Shown: positions 3,728 to 37,067, counted from the first letter of the stretch. The stretch is DNA of 44,360 nucleotides from an uncultured Muribaculaceae bacterium (GCA_964605575.1 CAZSDG010000002.1:1-44360), one strand, 5' to 3'. Notes: a model not told the origin generated them from the letters alone. Numbers and translations: made by a program.

Positions 3728-4549
3728 TTATTTACTTAATTTTTGTGTTAGCTCAATAAAGACATTTATTGGTAGCTCTTCAGCGCGAGAATTCAAATCG
3801 AATTTGTGTTTTTGCAATACATTATTAACAATGTCTAAATCGTATTTTCGTAAATTATTTCTAATGTTTTTGCGTTTAAATTGAAATGAATCACGCAGTA
3901 GTTTTTGAAAAAAATCCAAATCAATTTCTTCTTCATTTTCTTTTTTTTCAAAAAGTAGGACAACGCTATCAACTTTCGGTTTTGGCAAAAAATTTTCTTT
4001 ACCAACAAATAATACTTTTTTTATATTATAAAAATAATTTAAATGAACAGTTATTGAGCCATAAGATTTTGTTCCAGGTATAGCAGTAAATCTTTCGCCA
4101 ACTTCTTTTTGAACCATTAACAACATTTTATTTACTTGAATATTTTCATTAATTATTTTATTAATAATTGGCGTTGTAATATAATATGGTAAATTAGAGA
4201 TGATATATAAGTTTGAATAGTTTCTATTCTTTAAATAGTCTTTAATATCTATTTTTAGGAAATCTGCAAAAACTATTTCTGATCGCTCTGAAGAAAATCT
4301 ATCCAAATAAACTTTTAAATCTTCATCAATTTCAAAACCAATATAGTTTGAATTTTTGCTTAAAATTATTGCTGTTAAATCTCCTTGACCAAGGCCTATT
4401 TCAATAACCAAGTCATCTTCTTTTACATCAATAAAACTAACTATTTTTTTTAATAGATTTTTATTTTTAATAAAGTTTTGACCAAATTGTTTTTTAGTTT
4501 TATATTTATTCATAAAAGAAAAGGCGTTTATTCGCCTCTTTTTTTCCAA
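3728..4549 (-). CDS. rsmA: 16S rRNA (adenine1518/1519-N6)-dimethyltransferase RsmA/KsgA
   Basis: FGQNFIKNKNLL, SAM motif VIEIGLGQGDLT, NLPYYITTPI. The track start is a TTG at 4549; an ATG at 4513 (MNKYKTKKQFGQNF) is an alternative start. Confidence 0.9.
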   Translation of the reverse strand: MEKKRRINAFSFMNKYKTKKQFGQNFIKNKNLLKKIVSFIDVKEDDLVIEIGLGQGDLTAIILSKNSNYIGFEIDEDLKVYLDRFSSERSEIVFADFLKIDIKDYLKNRNYSNLYIISNLPYYITTPIINKIINENIQVNKMLLMVQKEVGERFTAIPGTKSYGSITVHLNYFYNIKKVLFVGKENFLPKPKVDSVVLLFEKKENEEEIDLDFFQKLLRDSFQFKRKNIRNNLRKYDLDIVNNVLQKHKFDLNSRAEELPINVFIELTQKLSK

Positions 4550-5085
4550 CCTTTTCTTAATAAGTCATATTTTATTTGGCTTCTACCTATTTTTCTTCCA
4601 GCATAGTCCTCTGATTCTGTTAACAAATCTATTGCGGTTCCACCAACACCTCGATCTAAAACAATCGCTATAACTGGTTCGGCAGAAACTCTACTTGATT
4701 CAAAACGAATTATCGAACCACAAGGAATATTTTTTGAAGAAGCGACAATTCTAACATTACCATAATCAGCATCTTTATGAATTATTGTTCCATCTCTTAC
4801 ATCTTTACTTGTACAACCTAAAAAACCAGAGCATAGAGCACAATCAGCGCCATATCCAGTTAGGTCCCCAACAAAAGAATCCAGCGGAGAGTATAAATCA
4901 TCATAATTTATTGCTTCCATTACCTCAGCTCTTGCACTAAGATTAAGTGTTTTATTTAAATTTTCGTTTATAACTCTAACTTCGTTTTGTCCTGCAATAT
5001 TTTTAGCAAGAAATAGCAGTCCAAAAACAAGAACAAACTGAAAAAAACGATAAATGTTTTTTAAGATTTTTTTCAAGATTATCAC
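4528..5085 (-). CDS. Membrane-anchored 3D-domain protein (YabE-like, putative cell-wall lytic/remodelling)
   Basis: N-terminal TM helix, then GYGADCALCSG...VASSKNIPCGSIIRF...AIVLDRGVGGTAIDLL, typical of the 3D (MltA-like) domain. It occupies the yabE position between tatD and ksgA. Confidence 0.6.
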   Translation of the reverse strand: MIILKKILKNIYRFFQFVLVFGLLFLAKNIAGQNEVRVINENLNKTLNLSARAEVMEAINYDDLYSPLDSFVGDLTGYGADCALCSGFLGCTSKDVRDGTIIHKDADYGNVRIVASSKNIPCGSIIRFESSRVSAEPVIAIVLDRGVGGTAIDLLTESEDYAGRKIGRSQIKYDLLRKGWKKRGE

Positions 5086-12250: not shown

Positions 12251-13933
12251 CTATCTAATATCTATATTTTCTTCGCCAAAAATATCAATTGCTACATCTG
12301 CCGTTTTCTCCTTTTTCTTGGTTACTTTTGGTTCTTCTATTTCAACATATTTTATATTATTTGATCTTTTGTCAATATATTCCTTCATTTCGATTTCCCA
12401 CTCAGTATCAGTTAAAAAGCAGATACTTATTTTTGTTCCAGAAAAAGTTTTAAATGCTTTTTCAATTTCTTCCGTTTGTTCAACTAATAATTTAATTGCA
12501 CCGTTAACTGGTGCCGATATAATCAAGTACTTCTTAGAAGCAACTTCTACCTGGCTGTGTTCAACCATAGAAAACAATTGTGCATTGCTGTCTTGCAAAT
12601 TTTCAATAAATTTATTCCAGCTTTTAACCATTTCTTGTTTTATTGTTTTACTAGCTCCTGCAAAACAATTATTAATTCTGATTTGTTTAATGTCAAAATA
12701 ACTAACATTTTCTTTTTTTTCATCTTTTTCTTTTTTTTCTATGTTAACTTTAGTTAACATTTTCTCGCTCGCAGACTTTTCATTGTACTCCTTCGTTAAC
12801 ATTTCTTTTTTTGGAGAAATATTTTTGTCAACTTTAGTTAACATTTCATCTTTTTCTTTATTTTTTATGTTAATTTTAGTTAACATTTCATCATTATTTC
12901 CAGCAAAATCTTTATTATTGCTTAATATATGAGATAAAATGTTTATTTCAAGCAATAAATATGGATTTGTAGTTAATTTTATTGATTTTTGACAATCAAT
13001 CAATAATAAAATTAAATTTTTATTTTTTTCAATTTTTTTGTTATTACTACGAATTAACCCATATATTTCTTCTTTTAAACTTTCAATCATTTTATTTATT
13101 AGAACACTAATATCTGTGCCACTTTTTTTTATACTACCAATTTCATCAAGAAATTGTTTAGAATCTTCTTCTTTAATAGTATTGAGTAGCAAATTAATTT
13201 TTTCGGTTGAAATATATGAGAATGTTTTTTCTAAGTCTTCAATTTCAATCTTATCTTCGTTGTTGGATAATTGATCTAATATGCCTAATGCATCGCGAAG
13301 CGATCCATCGCACATAACAGATATTTCATTTAATACATCTTTATTTATATTTATTTTTTCTTTTTTACATATTTTACTTAAATGTTCGGCTATTTTTTCA
13401 GTACTTATTTTGAAAAAATCAAATTTTTGGCATCTGGAAAGTATAGTTAGTGGCACTTTATGTATTTCTGTAGTTGCCAAAATAAATTTGACGTGTGAAA
13501 CGGGTTCTTCTAATGTTTTTAACAAGGCATTGTAAGCGCTTGAGGAAAGCATATGAACTTCATCAATAATATATACTTTAAATAGTAATGAGCTTGGAAC
13601 TAATCTAGAATTGCTAACTAGTTCTCGCATTTCATCAACTCCATTATTAGATGCAGCATCTATTTCAATAATATCTGGCGAAGTATCATAAATTAGGCAA
13701 TTTTCACACTTATTACATGGATTACCGTCAGTATTATTTAAACAATTAATGGCTTTTGCAAATATTTTTGCTGTACTTGTTTTTCCGGTTCCTCTTACAC
13801 CAGTAAATATATATGCATGAGCTGTTTTATTGTTAACAATAGATTGCTTAATAATTTCCACTATATTATCTTGACCAACTACCTCATCAAATGTCGATGG
13901 TCTATATTTTCTATATAAAACTTTATAATTCAC
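12251..13933 (-). CDS. dnaX: DNA polymerase III subunit gamma/tau
   Basis: GTG start. YRKYRPSTFDEVVGQ, Walker A GVRGTGKTS, zinc module CNKCENC, DEVHML, SRCQKF. Repeat-rich linker and a tau C-terminal region. Confidence 0.95.
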   Translation of the reverse strand: MNYKVLYRKYRPSTFDEVVGQDNIVEIIKQSIVNNKTAHAYIFTGVRGTGKTSTAKIFAKAINCLNNTDGNPCNKCENCLIYDTSPDIIEIDAASNNGVDEMRELVSNSRLVPSSLLFKVYIIDEVHMLSSSAYNALLKTLEEPVSHVKFILATTEIHKVPLTILSRCQKFDFFKISTEKIAEHLSKICKKEKININKDVLNEISVMCDGSLRDALGILDQLSNNEDKIEIEDLEKTFSYISTEKINLLLNTIKEEDSKQFLDEIGSIKKSGTDISVLINKMIESLKEEIYGLIRSNNKKIEKNKNLILLLIDCQKSIKLTTNPYLLLEINILSHILSNNKDFAGNNDEMLTKINIKNKEKDEMLTKVDKNISPKKEMLTKEYNEKSASEKMLTKVNIEKKEKDEKKENVSYFDIKQIRINNCFAGASKTIKQEMVKSWNKFIENLQDSNAQLFSMVEHSQVEVASKKYLIISAPVNGAIKLLVEQTEEIEKAFKTFSGTKISICFLTDTEWEIEMKEYIDKRSNNIKYVEIEEPKVTKKKEKTADVAIDIFGEENIDIR

Positions 13934-14416: not shown

Positions 14417-14433
14417 TTATTTCACCACCATAT

Positions 14434-14510
14434 AAAAAGTGCACACAAACAGTGATTGTTATGGCTGCTATTTTCCAATCCTGACCAATTTCCAATGTGT
14501 TTGTTGCACA
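14434..14510 (-). ncRNA. ffs: Signal recognition particle RNA, small 4.5S type
   Basis: The minus strand reads GUGCAACAAACACAUUGGAAAUUGGUCAGGAUUGGAAAAUAGCAGCCAUAACAAUCACUGUUUGUGUGCAC-UUUUU. It has the conserved domain IV core GGUCAGG..GGAA tetraloop..AGCAGCC and a long closing helix. Its own promoter lies just upstream. Confidence 0.85.
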
Positions 14511-14515
14511 TATGA

Positions 14516-14545
14516 ATTATAACATATTATCATTAGTTTATTCAA
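14516..14545 (-). promoter_or_regulatory. Promoter of the SRP RNA gene (TTGAAT-18 nt-TATAAT)
   Basis: On the minus strand, -35 TTGAAT is at 14545..14540 and -10 TATAAT at 14521..14516. The predicted TSS coincides with the first base of the SRP RNA helix. Confidence 0.65.
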
Positions 14546-14560
14546 TAAATATTTTTTTAA

Positions 14561-14576
14561 TGTTACACGTGTAACA
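14561..14576. other. parS site 1 (TGTTACACGTGTAACA, perfect palindrome)
   Basis: Matches the Firmicute parS consensus TGTTNCACGTGNAACA at all specified positions. An identical second copy lies 90 bp away. Confidence 0.8.
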
Positions 14577-14582
14577 TGGTTT

Positions 14583-14598
14583 TATTTCCCGGGAAATA
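14583..14598. other. Noc-binding site 1 (TATTTCCCGGGAAATA, perfect palindrome)
   Basis: Identical to the B. subtilis NBS (core ATTTCCCGGGAAAT). The palindrome extends to 20 bp (14581..14600). Confidence 0.8.
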
Positions 14599-14621
14599 AA
14601 ATGATGGTTACAAACAAAAAT

Positions 14622-14637
14622 TATTTCCCGGGAAATA
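14622..14637. other. Noc-binding site 2 (TATTTCCCGGGAAATA)
   Basis: Second identical NBS. Here the palindrome extends to 30 bp (14615..14644) and is followed on the minus strand by UUUGU, so it could also act as the gyrA terminator. Confidence 0.8.
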
Positions 14638-14650
14638 ATTTTTGGGTTGA

Positions 14651-14666
14651 TGTTACACGTGTAACA
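14651..14666. other. parS site 2 (TGTTACACGTGTAACA)
   Basis: Second identical copy. It abuts the gyrA stop codon (14668..14670). Confidence 0.8.
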
Positions 14667-14667
14667 T

Positions 14668-17151
14668 TTAATTTACTTGCTCATCTACTTCTAGTTCCGT
14701 TTTTTCTTCAGAATCTTCATCAGTAGCATTTGTTTCTTCTTGTTCAATTACACTAACTGTGGATACCTTTTGTTCATCTTTTAAAGTTATTAATCTAACT
14801 CCTTGGGTTACGCGACCAAGTTGAGATATCTGCTCGATTGGAAGTCTAATCATCATGCCAGAATCTGTTATTATCATTAAATCGTGCTCATCATCAACTA
14901 CTCTAAATGCAATTAATTTTCCTGTTTTTTCTGTAGTATTTAATGTTTTTACGCCTTTGCTTCCTCTTTTTGTTTGTCTATACTCTGATAGCCTAGTTTT
15001 TTTACCATAACCATTTTCAGTTACAATAAGAATATTATCTTCAGGAGAAGCAACAGCTGCTCCTATACAACTTGCTCCATCCAAGTTAATTCCTCTAACT
15101 CCCGAAGCTGTTCTTCCCATTGTTCTTACTTCTTTTTCATCAAATACGACCATTCTTCCAGAATCTGAACCTAATACAATTAAACTATCATCATCTGTTA
15201 GTTTAACGGAAATCAATTCGTCACTTTCCTTAAGAGTAATACAAATTTTACCAGTTTGTCTAATGCTTTCAAATTCAGAAACACACGTTCTCTTGACTAA
15301 TCCCTCTTTAGTAACAAATACCAATTTTTTATCTATTTGTTCAGGTGAATATTTAATTACTGAGTTTATCATTTCATCTTTATCTATTTGTAATAGATTT
15401 ATAATAGGCAACCCTTTTGCTTGTCTACTGTATTCAGGTATTTCGTATCCTTTTAAACGATAGACTTTTCCTTTGTTTGTGAAAAACATAATATAATCAT
15501 GTGTTGATAAATTCAGCATCAGTTCAACAAAATCCTCTTCATTAATCGACATTGCTTTAACACCGACACCACCACGGTTTTGAGTTTTGTAAGTATCAGC
15601 TGTGATTCTTTTAATGTATCCGTTCTTAGTAATTGTTAATATGCTGTTTTTTTCTTCAATTAATGACTCGTCATCAATATATTCAATAGCGGTCATATCA
15701 ATTATTGTTTTTCTTGGATCATTATATTTATTTTTAATTTCTAACATCTCAGACTTTATTATATCTAAAACTCTTTGGTTGTTTGCCAAAATATCTTTTA
15801 AATCAGCAATTAATTTTAATAATTCGGCTAACTCTTCTTCAATTTTATTTCTTTCTAAACCAGTTAATCTTCTTAACTTCATTTCTAAAATTGCTTGTGT
15901 TTGTTCATTTGATAATGAAAACTTTGTCATTAATTGATTTACTGCTTCTTCATCATTTTTAGCTTCTTTAATTGTTTTAATCACTGCATCAATGTTATCA
16001 AGTGCAATTTTTAATCCTTCAAGTATGTGCTCACGCGCTAGTGACTTTTCTAAATCAAACCTAGTTCTTCTTACTATAATTGTTTTTTGATAATCAACAT
16101 AATGATTAAATATATCAAGCAACCCCATTGTTTGTGGTCTGCCATGAGATAACATCAACATGTTAATACCATATGATACTTGTAATTGAGTTTGTTTATA
16201 TAAATTATTTAATAAAACATTTGCATTTGCATCTCTTTTTACATCAATTACTATTCTTATTCCTTCAAGAGCTGATTCATCGTGTAAATTAGAAATACCA
16301 TCAATCATTTTATCTCTTACTAATTCAGCGATTCTTTTAATCAGTGATTGTTTATTAACTTGATATGGTAGTTCAGTAACAATTATTCTTGATTTATCAT
16401 TTTTTTCTTCGATTTCGACTTTTGAACGAATTGTTATTGTTCCTTTACCAGTTTCAAATGCTTTTTTTATACCACTATTTCCAAGGATTGAGCCTGCAGT
16501 TGGGAAGTCTGGACCTTTAATATACTGCATTATTTCTTCTATTGTTATTTCGTTATTATCAATGTAAGCGATACAAGCATCAATAACTTCTCCTAAATTA
16601 TGTGGCGGAATATTTGTTGCCATTCCAACAGCAATACCCATATTTCCATTTACTAATATATTTGGAAATCTACTTGGTAGTATTTCTGGTTCTCTTCTTT
16701 GACCATCATAGTTATCTTTAAAATCAACTGTGTTTTTGTTTAAATCTCTTAACAGTTCCATTGATATTTTTGAAAGTCTTGCTTCTGTATAACGATGGGC
16801 AGCTGCGCCATCACCATCAATTGAACCAAAGTTACCGTGTCCATCAACTAGTGTATGGCGATATGTAAAATCTTGAGCCATTCTAACCATTGAATCATAA
16901 ATTGCTGCATCTCCGTGTGGATGGTAATGTCCCATAATTGCTCCTACAGCATTTGCACTTTTTTGGTGTTTTTTTTCGGGAGTCATTCCTTCTTCATACA
17001 TTGTATATAAAATTCTTCTATGAACAGGTTTTAAACCATCTCTTACATCAGGTATTGCTCGAGAAATGATAACGCTCATAGAATAGTCTAAAAATGAGGT
17101 TTTCATTTCATTTGTTAAATCGTGAATTATAATATTTTCTTCGTTATTCAT
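14668..17151 (-). CDS. gyrA: DNA gyrase subunit A
   Basis: 827 aa. DGLKPVHRRILY, the AAHRYTEARL active-site Tyr region, a C-terminal beta-pinwheel and an acidic tail. Confidence 0.97.
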   Translation of the reverse strand: MNNEENIIIHDLTNEMKTSFLDYSMSVIISRAIPDVRDGLKPVHRRILYTMYEEGMTPEKKHQKSANAVGAIMGHYHPHGDAAIYDSMVRMAQDFTYRHTLVDGHGNFGSIDGDGAAAHRYTEARLSKISMELLRDLNKNTVDFKDNYDGQRREPEILPSRFPNILVNGNMGIAVGMATNIPPHNLGEVIDACIAYIDNNEITIEEIMQYIKGPDFPTAGSILGNSGIKKAFETGKGTITIRSKVEIEEKNDKSRIIVTELPYQVNKQSLIKRIAELVRDKMIDGISNLHDESALEGIRIVIDVKRDANANVLLNNLYKQTQLQVSYGINMLMLSHGRPQTMGLLDIFNHYVDYQKTIIVRRTRFDLEKSLAREHILEGLKIALDNIDAVIKTIKEAKNDEEAVNQLMTKFSLSNEQTQAILEMKLRRLTGLERNKIEEELAELLKLIADLKDILANNQRVLDIIKSEMLEIKNKYNDPRKTIIDMTAIEYIDDESLIEEKNSILTITKNGYIKRITADTYKTQNRGGVGVKAMSINEEDFVELMLNLSTHDYIMFFTNKGKVYRLKGYEIPEYSRQAKGLPIINLLQIDKDEMINSVIKYSPEQIDKKLVFVTKEGLVKRTCVSEFESIRQTGKICITLKESDELISVKLTDDDSLIVLGSDSGRMVVFDEKEVRTMGRTASGVRGINLDGASCIGAAVASPEDNILIVTENGYGKKTRLSEYRQTKRGSKGVKTLNTTEKTGKLIAFRVVDDEHDLMIITDSGMMIRLPIEQISQLGRVTQGVRLITLKDEQKVSTVSVIEQEETNATDEDSEEKTELEVDEQVN

Positions 17152-20260: not shown

Positions 20261-20713
20261 TCAAAAATTACTTAATTTACGATTTCTCAAAACTGATTCT
20301 AATCTTGTTGCTCTTAATATTTGATTATTCATTACTCCATAAGAAACATCTGACTCAATTATGGTATTATTTTTAAATAATATATAATTTTTATCATTTT
20401 TTTTAATTATTTTTTCTACATTTTTTAAAGATATCCAAGAACACTTATCTATTCTTGGTGACATTGTAGGAAAAAATATTATTTCCTTGCTCTCTTCAAT
20501 AATTACTGGTGCTTTATGTGTAACACCAATTAATTTTGAAGTTCCTTTTTGACGACCTTCTAAAGAACTTCCGAAAAATTCACAACTATCATCCATTATC
20601 TTTAATGCGGATTTATTTACAATAAACACACGATCAGTTTCATAGACTTTGGATTTATCGGATTTAATTGGAATAACAGCAAGTGTTTCTTCATTAATCT
20701 CATATTCTTCCAT
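20261..20713 (-). CDS. comK: ComK-family competence transcription factor
   Basis: 150 aa. YEINEETLAVIP, CEFFGSSLEGRQKGT, HKAPVII and IFFPTMSPRIDKCSWISL line up with B. subtilis ComK (YEVNGATIAVLP, CRFFGSSYAGRKAGT, HKPPIMV, IFLFPTLSSTRPQCGWIS, quoted from memory). Confidence 0.85.
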   Translation of the reverse strand: MEEYEINEETLAVIPIKSDKSKVYETDRVFIVNKSALKIMDDSCEFFGSSLEGRQKGTSKLIGVTHKAPVIIEESKEIIFFPTMSPRIDKCSWISLKNVEKIIKKNDKNYILFKNNTIIESDVSYGVMNNQILRATRLESVLRNRKLSNF

Positions 20714-22047: not shown

Positions 22048-23406
22048 TTAATTAATTTTGTTTTTAATTTCTTCAATCATTTTTTTCACTTGATTATTTT
22101 TCTTAATATCTTCGGTTATTTTATTACAAGCATGAATTACAGTAGAATGACTTTTACCGCCAAATTCTATTCCGATTTTTGTTGTTGTTTCATCTGTAAT
22201 TATTCTAGATAAATATATAGCTATTTGTCTTGGATAGTTAATATCTGCAGTTCTTTTCTTACTTTTTAAATCTTCAACTGTTATTTCGTAGTAATCAGCA
22301 ACAATTTTTTGAATTTTTGTTATGCTACTACTTAAGTATTCATTACTTTTTAAATGATCTTGTAACGATTCCATTGCAAATTCTAAATTAATATTTCTTT
22401 CGTTCATTGTTGCTGAATAAGCAATTAATCTATTTAATGATCCTTGAAGGTGCCTTATGTCATTATCGCTGTTTTGAGCTATATATTCAATTGCTTCCTC
22501 GTTAATATAATCTCTAATTTCTAAATTTTTGATTTTATCCTTTAATATTTTTAATTTTAAAGTGAAGTCTGGTGGATAGATATCAATCGTTAAACCCCAA
22601 CTAAATCTTGTTTTTAACCTATCTTCTAGAAATTTTAAATCATCAGGAGAACGATCAGAACTAATAATAATTTGCCGATTAAGATTTTTTAAATATTCAA
22701 ATGTATGAAAAAATTCTTGTCTAGTTTTCTCAGCTCCACTAAAAAATTGGATATCATCAATGATTAGGACATCAATACTTCTATATTTATTTTTAAAGAA
22801 ATTAATATAATCAAAGTTATTTTCATTATTAGAACTTCTATTATTAATATCTACAAAATCTTCTCGAAATTGATCACTTGTAACATAAAGAACTTTTAAA
22901 TTTGAGTTTTGAACAATATAATTACCAATTGCATGCATTAAATGAGTTTTACCAAGTCCACTTTTACCGTGAATAAAAAGTGGATTATATATTTTACCAG
23001 GATTTTGTGCTACTGTTAATGCTGATGAATAAGCGAATTTATTAGTATCACCAATCATAAATGTTTCAAAAGTATATTCAGGTTTTAAATTAGTGTTTAT
23101 AGTACTATTTTCTAGATTATTTTTATCATTAATAGGATCTTCATCTTGTTGTTCTTCAAGTTCATCTTGATAAATAAAATTAATTTGATAACTTTTTCCT
23201 GTTTTTTCTAAAAATATTTCTTCAAAGAGTGATTTATAAGTATCTGATAAAATTTTTTTATGTAAAGCCATTTCTACTAATATATCTACATTGTTAATAT
23301 CTATATTGTGTAATTTAATATTTTTAAACCAGGCATTGAAAGAAACTGGAGAGATTTGTTCTCTTAATTCATTTAAAACACTATTCCACAAAGAATCATT
23401 ATTCAT
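22048..23406 (-). CDS. dnaA: Chromosomal replication initiator protein DnaA
   Basis: 452 aa. Walker A GKSGLGKTHL, Walker B LIIDDIQF, and the C-terminal DNA-binding signature GGKSHSTVIHA. Confidence 0.97.
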   Translation of the reverse strand: MNNDSLWNSVLNELREQISPVSFNAWFKNIKLHNIDINNVDILVEMALHKKILSDTYKSLFEEIFLEKTGKSYQINFIYQDELEEQQDEDPINDKNNLENSTINTNLKPEYTFETFMIGDTNKFAYSSALTVAQNPGKIYNPLFIHGKSGLGKTHLMHAIGNYIVQNSNLKVLYVTSDQFREDFVDINNRSSNNENNFDYINFFKNKYRSIDVLIIDDIQFFSGAEKTRQEFFHTFEYLKNLNRQIIISSDRSPDDLKFLEDRLKTRFSWGLTIDIYPPDFTLKLKILKDKIKNLEIRDYINEEAIEYIAQNSDNDIRHLQGSLNRLIAYSATMNERNINLEFAMESLQDHLKSNEYLSSSITKIQKIVADYYEITVEDLKSKKRTADINYPRQIAIYLSRIITDETTTKIGIEFGGKSHSTVIHACNKITEDIKKNNQVKKMIEEIKNKIN

Positions 23407-23706
23407 TAATAAACCACCCCGCTCACTAATATTTTTCTTAAGTTAATTTTAACTTAGAATTAACAATTATTAAAGTCAAAAAAACAAACAAGAAGAGTTT
23501 TGAACAATATATCAACAAAAATAATTTGTTAGTTACTTATAATAACTGATAATAAAAAAGTTTTCAACAATTTAAACAAAATGTCTTTGAACATAAATTA
23601 ATATCAACATGTTAAAATGTTTAAAACTATATTTAGTTAAGCTTTATTCATATATTTATCCGTGGTATACTAATATTAATCAGTTAAAGAACTAGATCGG
23701 TAATTT
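23407..23706. other. oriC candidate / divergent dnaA-rnpA promoter region with degenerate DnaA boxes
   Basis: 300-bp AT-rich spacer at the point where gene orientation switches. Same-orientation 9-mers: TTTTGAACA 23498, ATATCAACA 23509, TTTTCAACA 23561, CTTTGAACA 23585, ATATCAACA 23601, TTATCCGTG 23656. Confidence 0.6.
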
Positions 23707-29610: not shown

Positions 29611-30822
29611 ATGAATTCAAATTCACAAGTAATGGATATTTTTATTGAAGAAATAATTCCTAATCGTTTTCAACCACGACTTTCTTTTGATGAAAAAAAG
29701 ATTAATGAACTTGCAGCCTCGATTAAAGTACATGGAATAATACAACCTTTAGTTTTAAGACGTATTGGAGATAAATATGAAATAATCGCTGGTGAGAGAA
29801 GATTTAAAGCCGCGACAATGGTTGGTTTAAATAAAGTACCTGCAATTATTGTTGAAATGGATGATACAAAGAGTGCTGAAGTTGCACTTGTTGAAAATCT
29901 CCAAAGAAAAGATTTATCAGCAATAGAAACAGCAAAGTCATTTAAGAAAATCCTTGATATGGGACAGATGACACAAGAACAATTAGCAGAAAAAATGGGT
30001 GTTTCTCAATCCTCAGTGGCTAATAAACTTAGATTATTAAATCTTGATGAAAAAGTTCAACAAGCTTTATTAGAAGAAAAAATTTCAGAAAGACATGCAA
30101 GAAGTATGTTATCAACATCAGATTATAATCAACAGCAACAATTATTAGAAAAAGTTATTAATGAAAGATTAACCGTAAAACAACTCGATGAAGAAATTAA
30201 AACAATGTTGAAAGGAAACGGTATTGAAAAAGTGGAAGTTTTTGAAGAAGGTTCAAATGTAGAAAGTTTTGATTTATCAGAAAATGAAAATAATTCTGAA
30301 AAATTTGAGTTTTTTGACGAAAAAAAACCTGATATTATTGAAACGTCACCGAATCAAGAACCAATAAAAGAAGTTTTTAGTTTTGATGAACCAATAATTA
30401 ATACATTAGAAACTGCAAATCCAGAAAAAAGCATTTTTACTAATGGTGAACCAATTATTGACTTATCATCGAATAATGTTTCAGATAATTTGTCTAATGT
30501 TCAAAGTATCGAAGAAATGACAATTTTGACAGAAGCGGAAAAAGAACAAGCGGCTATTATTAATTTAGATCAAGCTATTAGTGAATTACAGCCAGATAAT
30601 GAGAATCCTGAACCACTTATTGTTTCAGAAAAACAACCAGAAGAACAAACAACAGAAGTAATTAAAGAAATAGAAATAAAAATTGATAAAAATAACTTTA
30701 GAACTGTTGAAGAGGCATTTGACAACTTAAAAAAAGACATAGAGAATGCTGGTTTAAGAATAGATATGGATACTTATAATTTTGAACAATACTATCAGTT
30801 GATAATTAAAGTTTATAAATAA
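29611..30822 (+). CDS. noc: ParB-family protein of the Noc (nucleoid occlusion) type, with a long acidic insertion
   Basis: IPNRFQPR, the GERRFKAA CTP-binding box, LVENLQRKDLS. The HTH region QSSVANKLRLLNL...ISERHAR and the C-terminus FEQYYQLIIKVYK resemble B. subtilis Noc (QSTIANKLRLLKL...ITERHAR, FEEYIQLTIRIPK, quoted from memory). It sits at the syntenic position after rsmG. Confidence 0.8.
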   Translation: MNSNSQVMDIFIEEIIPNRFQPRLSFDEKKINELAASIKVHGIIQPLVLRRIGDKYEIIAGERRFKAATMVGLNKVPAIIVEMDDTKSAEVALVENLQRKDLSAIETAKSFKKILDMGQMTQEQLAEKMGVSQSSVANKLRLLNLDEKVQQALLEEKISERHARSMLSTSDYNQQQQLLEKVINERLTVKQLDEEIKTMLKGNGIEKVEVFEEGSNVESFDLSENENNSEKFEFFDEKKPDIIETSPNQEPIKEVFSFDEPIINTLETANPEKSIFTNGEPIIDLSSNNVSDNLSNVQSIEEMTILTEAEKEQAAIINLDQAISELQPDNENPEPLIVSEKQPEEQTTEVIKEIEIKIDKNNFRTVEEAFDNLKKDIENAGLRIDMDTYNFEQYYQLIIKVYK

Positions 30823-37011: not shown

Positions 37012-37067
37012 TGACAAGAACGGAATTACTATGACTGCTATTAGTCATGGCGGAAGGAGCAAATAAA

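Follow-up and report, generated by a model that had tools for sequence, protein, structure and literature searches.

Interleaved parS-type and NBS-type palindromes in an origin-proximal spacer of uncultured low-GC Bacilli

In the stretch of DNA presented above, a 108-bp gap after gyrA holds two parS-type and two NBS-type (Noc-type) palindromes, and comparison with related genomes indicates that this array is a small representative of a feature found clade-wide. On balance, we favour the reading that the array would act as a combined, origin-proximal hub at which two paralogous CTP clamps are loaded, a Noc-like protein at NBS and a canonical ParB at parS. The components are of known kinds, namely parS, NBS, and a Noc-family CTPase. 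Three points appear to be new: the occurrence of parS and NBS in one syntenic spacer near the origin as a conserved, interleaved array, often with tandem amplification; the concentration of NBS at what would be a centromere; and a large Noc subfamily that naturally lacks the membrane-targeting sequence and carries N184.

Four exact palindromes between gyrA and ffs

The window, that is, the whole stretch analysed, is one entire contig (44,360 bases) of a metagenome-assembled genome (MAG). The features on which the analysis turns are the following.

14423-14517, minus strand: ffs, the small SRP RNA gene (Rfam RF00169, 60.8 bits), transcribed away from the array
14545..14516, minus strand: ffs promoter-like site, TTGAAT-18-TATAAT (scan 10/12, extended -10 TG)
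14560-14577 (16-bp core 14561-14576): parS-1, ATGTTACACGTGTAACAT, fitting TGTTNCACGTGNAACA at each specified base
14582-14599 (core 14583-14598): NBS-1, TTATTTCCCGGGAAATAA, the centre of an imperfect 32-bp palindrome at 14575-14606
14621-14638 (core TATTTCCCGGGAAATA at 14622-14637): NBS-2, TTATTTCCCGGGAAATAA, inside a perfect 30-bp palindrome at 14615-14644, CAAAAATTATTTCCCGGGAAATAATTTTTG
14650-14667 (core 14651-14666): parS-2, ATGTTACACGTGTAACAT, abutting the gyrA stop codon at 14668-14670
14668-17151, minus strand: gyrA (Pfam DNA_topoisoIV and six GyrA C-terminal repeats), transcribed towards the array
22048-23406, minus strand: dnaA, the gene of the inferred origin region
22048-23706: inferred origin region, comprising dnaA and the divergent dnaA-rnpA spacer, with a GC-skew sign change
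29611-30822, plus strand: Noc-family CTPase (ParB_N and HTH_ParB by Pfam), the predicted NBS reader

A first-pass annotation, made from the sequence of the window, had described the four palindromes and located them in the interval from the stop codon of gyrA to the promoter of the SRP RNA. When re-checked, all four positions and sequences were as described, the second NBS copy does lie within the 30-bp perfect palindrome, and the gene calls, Rfam, and the promoter scan agree on the flanking features. The parS core was said to fit the Firmicute consensus, and it matches TGTTNCACGTGNAACA at all specified positions; the NBS core was said to equal the Bacillus subtilis site, and palindromes containing the ATTTCCCGGGAAAT core are indeed present as two exact 16-mers, at 14583-14598 and 14622-14637. 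The centre-to-centre spacings are 22, 39, and 29 bp, and the earlier judgement that such an arrangement is not due to chance was borne out. With up to two mismatches allowed, TGTTNCACGTGNAACA has two matches in the 44,360 bases against 0.08 expected, and none of 100 shuffles reached two; with up to three mismatches, TATTTCCCGGGAAATA has only the two array matches in the window, both exact. A chance origin of the four-site array is thus excluded.

parS-1, whose A/T flanks are the clade consensus found in 97-99% of copies, precedes the -35 hexamer of the ffs promoter by 15 bp and is identical in the relative L085, as are NBS-1 and its flanks. On the minus strand, a U-rich tail adjoins the NBS-2 palindrome, whose extension to 30 bp is mostly accounted for by the 24-bp NBS consensus of the clade, AAATTATTTCCCGGGAAATAATTT.

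The GC skew switches sign at about 23-24 kb, between dnaA (minus strand) and rnpA-yidC-jag-mnmE-mnmG-rsmG (plus strand), so that the array lies at a distance of about 8.7 kb from dnaA and this sign change, in agreement with the earlier estimate of about 9 kb from oriC for an origin that is itself inferred. No cluster of consensus DnaA boxes (TTATCCACA, at most one mismatch) was found next to dnaA (23407-23706), and the whole-window count equals the chance expectation; oriC is therefore placed by skew and gene order only and is not delimited, and it may have divergent boxes or lie elsewhere in the spacer. Both a match to TGTTNCACGTGNAACA and a conserved, origin-proximal location were thus found for the parS-type sites. 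On the far side of the array from gyrA, beyond ffs, lie tadA and dnaX.

The array is conserved at one syntenic position across a clade

A genome scan with one genome per species and the pattern parS-N{0,30}-NBS found mixed parS/NBS clusters in the gyrA-ffs-tadA spacer of at least 119 species-level genomes of uncultured low-GC Bacilli; because the pattern itself selects parS-NBS adjacency, the fraction of the clade with interleaved sites is known only roughly. Nearly all hosts of these loci are MAGs labelled ‘Bacilli’, ‘Mollicutes’, ‘Tenericutes’, or CAG-type, from guts and digesters. Among the matches listed, a gyrA and/or tadA homologue accompanies the array in 119 of 119 loci, and gyrA homologues flank it in 106 of the 119, while ffs adjoins the array in 16 of the 18 relatives tested. 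The 82 loci with both gyrA and tadA have spacers that total 57 kb (median 650 bp) and hold 299 parS and 151 NBS, compared with 52 parS and 60 NBS in the remaining 576 kb, which makes NBS about 25 times as dense in the spacer as in the flanks. In the closest relatives, L085 and L123 (GyrA 94% identical), the parS (P) and NBS (N) sites follow the same P-N-N-P order, and the sites and their immediate flanks are identical while the spacers contain indels. This conservation indicates that the sites are real and under selection. The earlier proposal of a non-random composite array near a Noc-like gene therefore extends to the same spot in at least 119 species.

A site-independent sample, in which metagenome loci were fetched by GyrA similarity alone, gave a sharp boundary: where GyrA was at least 59% identical, parS and/or NBS followed gyrA in 10 of 11 evaluable loci, interleaved in 4 of the 11, whereas at 58% identity or less, none of 55 loci had sites after gyrA. 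Possession of the cassette therefore marks a single clade and does not extend to Firmicutes in general. Two of the spacers examined, in L124 and L128, contain parS only.

The two site classes are distributed differently around this spacer. Copies of parS are essentially confined to about 1 kb around the main cluster, and NBS also forms a low-density background in relatives, at about 0.3-0.6 per 10 kb near the origin; the window holds only its two array copies. Sites within ORFs account for 39 of 296 NBS compared with 15 of 473 parS. A conserved NBS lies inside dnaX in 22 loci, at about residues 340-400 and 1.5-2 kb from the main array (for example, L002:3792, L003:3555, L005:4702, L015:1875, L016:3087, and L020:2444); this dnaX-embedded extended NBS, AAAATTATTTCCCGGGAAATAATTT, is perfect and can be read as K-I-I-S-R-E-I-I. 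The dnaX of the window (12251-13933) lacks the intragenic NBS found in its relatives.

That the palindromes are REP-like or mobile repeat copies with no dedicated protein reader would suit short perfect palindromes in an intergenic spacer, with tandem arrays in some relatives, but we find this explanation hardly credible. No further copy of either site occurs in the window even with 2-3 mismatches allowed, the location is syntenic in all 119 loci among the matches listed, the sequences equal two experimentally defined binding motifs, and a cognate reader of the Noc type is predicted nearby. Scattering through intergenic regions, which the first-pass annotation had named as a test of the REP-like reading, was not seen for parS, and NBS is scattered only as a low-density background like that of Noc sites.

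Eleven records titled Muribaculaceae or Bacteroides helcogenes carry the gyrA-array-tadA locus of low-GC Bacilli (L004, L005, L011, L023, L029, L039, L049, L055, L080, L108, and L115), which probably reflects public MAG sets in which genomes were mis-binned or mislabelled. Genes for SpoIIR, SpoIID, a class A PBP, and MurA occur in relatives that public records label Mollicutes, Tenericutes, or Mycoplasma (L121, 18041-18526; L122, 15857-16390 and 19273-20151). These genes point to walled, possibly sporulating Bacilli, so that the Mollicutes-type labels are misleading.

Joint expansion of parS and NBS, and what it says of the array's role

In other species, the commonest form of the array is the P-N-P triad. 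Tandem Repeats Finder identified tandem parS+NBS arrays with units of 64 bp (7.8 copies), 75 bp (8.8 copies), and 172/334 bp, and site spacings revealed periods of about 76-84 bp in further loci; the alternating tandem arrays comprise up to nine units, with up to 9+9 sites over more than 600 bp. Within tandem arrays, the site cores diverge by 2.5% as against 7.3% for the spacers (p = 1e-6), a further sign of selection on the sites. The parS+NBS units have expanded together repeatedly and independently, with different unit lengths. The alternation of parS and NBS exceeds the permutation expectation, and the cluster termini are parS in 130 of 176 cases versus 113 expected (p = 0.0002).

The possibility that parS and NBS keep a fixed helical phase was discarded, since the P-N spacing is broad (16-50 bp). 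This absence of phasing argues for independent loading sites and not for a fixed ParB-Noc contact.

These observations bear on the view that the co-location itself has no function, with parS and NBS working independently as in Bacillus and gathered in a scarce origin spacer. In its favour, a crude ORF proxy puts the coding share of this compact genome at about 81%, the P-N spacing is not fixed, and the spacers of L124 and L128 contain parS only. We nevertheless consider this view quite improbable: joint expansion of parS+NBS units happened repeatedly and independently with different unit lengths, alternation and the parS-outside order go beyond the permutation expectation, NBS is some 25-fold enriched over the flanks, and both site types survive in the closest relatives despite indels in the spacers.

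A further reading takes the palindromes as mainly RNA-level or transcriptional elements, a gyrA terminator together with an insulator or operator of the ffs promoter, the likeness to parS and NBS being secondary. The array does lie exactly between a gene end and a promoter, its minus-strand transcript folds into one nested hairpin (-49.7 kcal/mol, z = -8.9), and NBS-2 provides a 13-bp stem (-10.7 kcal/mol) followed by UUUGU. The large hairpin was rejected as functional evidence, since pairing is the automatic outcome of palindromes in mirror order; what comes after it is an A-run and not a U-run. A consensus scan called no terminator on the minus strand, the local stems hold only one to three G-C pairs, and the 9+9 sites over more than 600 bp in relatives far exceed the needs of termination. 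NBS with the same extended flanks also occurs in the dnaX coding sequence, and conservation of all 16 positions suits a dimeric helix-turn-helix (HTH) protein rather than a stem. A mainly transcriptional role is, in our judgement, very unlikely. The suggestion in the first-pass annotation that the sites double as the gyrA terminator would hold at best as a secondary role of NBS-2, which has an A/U-rich stem and a U-rich tail but no terminator call on the minus strand.

Some of the contigs that carry an array combine a very short length with very high coverage, such as L001 (3,369 nt, multi=565) and L118 (3,867 nt, coverage 330), or end at the array. Since tandem repeats may break short-read assemblies, the array sizes in MAGs may be underestimates.

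A Noc orthologue lacking the membrane-targeting helix

The ORF at 29611-30822 is the only ParB-family ORF on the contig. It lies immediately downstream of rsmG, as noc does, and is followed by argS; relatives have the same order, rsmG-noc-(PBP)-argS. The protein contains the CTP-binding motifs of the N domain (GERR at aa 61 and ENLQR at aa 95), the HTH, and a C-terminal domain that aligns to positions 212-255 of the Noc model, so that the N domain, the DNA-binding domain, and the C-terminal dimerisation domain expected of a Noc are present. Against PDB, its first 200 residues score 198 bits with Noc and 164 bits with Spo0J, which upholds the earlier description of the only ParB-family gene in the window as Noc-like. 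With the NCBIfam Noc model TIGR04285, the native protein scores 275 bits and the protein with its linker removed 287 bits, both below the cutoff of 315; in the latter form, it aligns with the model from end to end. We take the product of 29611-30822 to be a Noc orthologue.

In the HTH, Q133, K139, N144, and R161 occupy positions 173, 179, 184, and 201, so that the four specificity residues of Noc, QKKR, appear here as QKNR. In the work of Jalal et al. (PMC7383237), Q173 reads adenine 1 of NBS and cytosine 6 is read by R201 so long as position 179 or 184 holds a lysine, and R173 is invariant in parS-specific ParB/Noc variants. Q133, R161, and K139 conform to this rule for an NBS reader. The Noc-like protein is accordingly predicted to read NBS and not parS, because it has Q173 and R201 together with K179, while parS-specific variants keep R173. 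Two of its DNA-contact residues depart from Noc (K171V and K184N) and its score is below the Noc cutoff, so that this specificity is a prediction only; the supplement of PMC7383237 gives no fitness value for QKNR. All four residues, Q173, K179, N184, and R201, are kept in 120 of the 120 closest homologues. In a representative search aimed at ParB-type paralogues, the best 150 hits all belonged to the Noc-like family, and Q173 and R201 were kept in 142 of the 142 alignable representatives among these best 150, with mostly N, S, T, or A at position 184.

The helix at the N-terminus that targets the membrane is absent. The alignment begins at about Noc residue 26-27, the ORF cannot be extended upstream, and only 16 residues precede PNRFQPR; the short N-terminus is common to 120 of the 120 closest homologues. 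In B. subtilis, the N-terminal 10-residue helix of Noc is needed for nucleoid occlusion and for liposome binding (PMC8429893). With the first ~26 Noc residues missing, classical membrane tethering is improbable, and the protein probably does not act in that way. Between the HTH and the C-terminal domain lies an acidic linker of 147 aa (residues 204-350, 25% D+E). Across the family (P0001-P0265), the proteins are 227-821 aa long, and the linker varies from about 55 to more than 400 residues but is always acidic (about 25% D+E and 5% K+R).

Two site classes and their readers

Approximately 770 sites were collected from relatives, comprising 473 pure parS and 297 pure NBS palindromes, and none of them was a hybrid of a parS half and an NBS half. 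The NBS site is invariant in 296 copies. The flanks also differ between the classes: 97-99% of parS have the form A-core-T, and NBS is flanked by AAAT and ATTT, as in its 24-bp consensus. From the lack of hybrids, the different flanks and distributions, and the Q173/R201 signature of the Noc-like protein, we think it reasonably probable that two readers, not one, serve these sites.

A search for the second reader gave no candidate in the sequences covered. With the window protein and B. subtilis Spo0J as queries, phmmer against all ORFs of 119 + 83 loci retrieved only the Noc-like gene. No ParB of the R173/G201 type was present in the 44-kb contig, in L120-L122, or in about 1.6 Mb of origin-proximal sequence from the clade and related genomes; one of the loci, L089, is 8 kb of a complete clade chromosome (CP091739.1). 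Pfam and NCBIfam detected no second ParB and no ParA in 30 of the 52 window ORFs of at least 80 aa, and soj/spo0J is absent after the noc-like gene both here and in relatives. The parS-type sites are putative ParB sites, because no ParB able to read parS was found in the window or in the loci of its relatives.

The same observations lend themselves to another explanation, in which the canonical ParB has been lost and the QKNR Noc-like protein is the sole centromere clamp, reading both parS and NBS. Its gene is alone in representing the ParB family within the 44-kb origin region, neither the window nor its relatives have anything in the soj-spo0J slot, no other ParB occurred in any clade sequence searched, and parS and NBS stay together and are duplicated as a single unit. 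The Noc-like family also differs from Noc at contact positions 171 and 184 and lacks the membrane helix, and is therefore, on this explanation, not doing the classical Noc job. Against this, Q173 and R201 are invariant, and the mutational scan found R173 to be required for parS binding and dual-specific variants to have mostly T or S at 201 (PMC7383237). Moreover, a monomer able to read either half-site should tolerate hybrids, of which there are none among the ~770 sites, and the two classes differ in flank preference and chromosomal distribution. A single reader is in our estimate unlikely. If true, a single dual-specific reader would be a natural ParB/Noc state of the kind that deep mutational scanning suggested evolution avoided, and the alternating arrays would load one protein in two modes.

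The first-pass annotation had offered three readings of the array. The one with two clamps at one hub gains from the discrete site classes with their different flanks and distributions, and the one-protein reading is disfavoured, Q173/R201 being invariant and parS-specific variants needing R173; the third, the gyrA terminator, was dealt with above. Its authoring model had been aware of no described locus of this kind, and our full-text literature searches, which included Mollicutes and RF39, likewise returned no parS/NBS arrays and no ParB or Noc work in this clade.

A proposed composite loading hub

In the two-clamp hub that we favour, the gyrA-ffs spacer would be the version, in this organism, of an origin-proximal ‘centromere’ cassette that the whole clade shares. 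From its specificity residues, the Noc-family product of 29611-30822 is predicted to bind the NBS, and we infer that the parS sites would be read by a canonical ParB of the R173/G201 type encoded elsewhere in the genome. The subsequent steps are taken from established ParB/Noc biochemistry (PMC7383237, PMC8429893, and PMC5540599): each clamp dimer would nucleate on its own palindrome, close on CTP, and slide off, whereupon the site would be reloaded. Through such closing, sliding, and reloading, a few packed sites could coat several kilobases of flanking DNA. With both site types in one spacer, both clamps would occupy the same origin-proximal stretch, gyrA-gyrB-recF-dnaN-dnaA on one side and ffs-tadA-dnaX on the other, and the tendency of parS to lie outermost may mean that ParB spreads outward while Noc-type clamps load in between. 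With its acidic linker and C-terminal domain, the Noc-like protein might add a second mark or level of organisation to the origin region, or it might take part in replication control, as reported for Noc of Staphylococcus aureus; both ideas are speculative. In S. aureus, Noc and ParB occur although ParA is missing, and spreading of its Noc covers 8-10 kb (PMC5540599).

The system resembles the Noc-NBS pair of B. subtilis and S. aureus in its identical 16-bp site TATTTCCCGGGAAATA, in a protein that follows rsmG and has a CTP-binding N domain, an HTH with Q173/K179/R201, and a Noc-like C-terminal domain, and in the scattered single NBS of relatives, some of them inside genes. Unlike those systems, the Noc-like protein here has no membrane helix, has N184 and V171 in place of lysines, carries an inserted acidic linker (100-200 aa; about 55 to more than 400 aa across the family), and scores below the NCBIfam Noc cutoff; the NBS are not only dispersed but gathered, in alternation with parS, within a single spacer near the origin. 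With the ParB-parS systems of Firmicutes (Spo0J-parS in B. subtilis, and S. aureus and Streptococcus pneumoniae, which lack ParA), it shares TGTTNCACGTGNAACA, an origin-proximal position, and several copies, and there is no ParA in the region, as in S. aureus. Firmicute parS sites are spread over tens to hundreds of kilobases, whereas here they are packed in one spacer of less than 1.5 kb, with up to 9-11 copies in relatives, and alternate with the sites of a paralogous protein; parB is missing from its customary position and did not turn up in the loci searched.

The centromere of the F plasmid, sopC, consists of 12 tandem repeats of 43 bp. We take the head-to-tail units of relatives (64-84 bp, about 8-9 copies, a binding palindrome in each) to be comparable with such plasmid centromeres, from which they would presumably differ in being chromosomal and in having two palindromes per unit, for two ParB-family specificities. 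The window itself differs from tandem-repeat centromeres, since its sites number only four and follow a mirror order.

ParB and Noc are the textbook example of a DNA-binding clamp that was duplicated and whose copies then took on separate tasks: the centromere is marked by ParB, and Noc, spread over the chromosome, tethers it to the membrane and blocks division. A large uncultured clade that packs both site types together, often in strict alternation, and whose Noc orthologue lacks the membrane helix could serve as a natural system for several questions: the function of Noc-type clamps that do not tether DNA to the membrane; whether a pair of paralogous sliding clamps, with loading sites a few turns apart, obstruct, corral, or assist one another; and whether, once the duplication had occurred, Noc first worked at the centromere. 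Short and defined, both the sites and the protein lend themselves to easy tests in vitro or in a heterologous host.

Other features of the window

For a 185-aa ORF at 4528-5085 (minus strand), flanked by the TatD and KsgA/RsmA genes, Pfam gave no match. Upstream of rpmE, at 37029-37059 (plus strand), there is an L31-Firmicutes ribosomal-protein leader (Rfam RF03156, 35.5 bits). Between dnaN and recF, a ComK-family gene encoding 150 aa is found at 20261-20713 (minus strand) and is kept in relatives (L120, 649-1101; L121, 186-638; L122, 469-921); the dnaA-dnaN-recF-gyrB-gyrA core block is an unusual place for a competence regulator.
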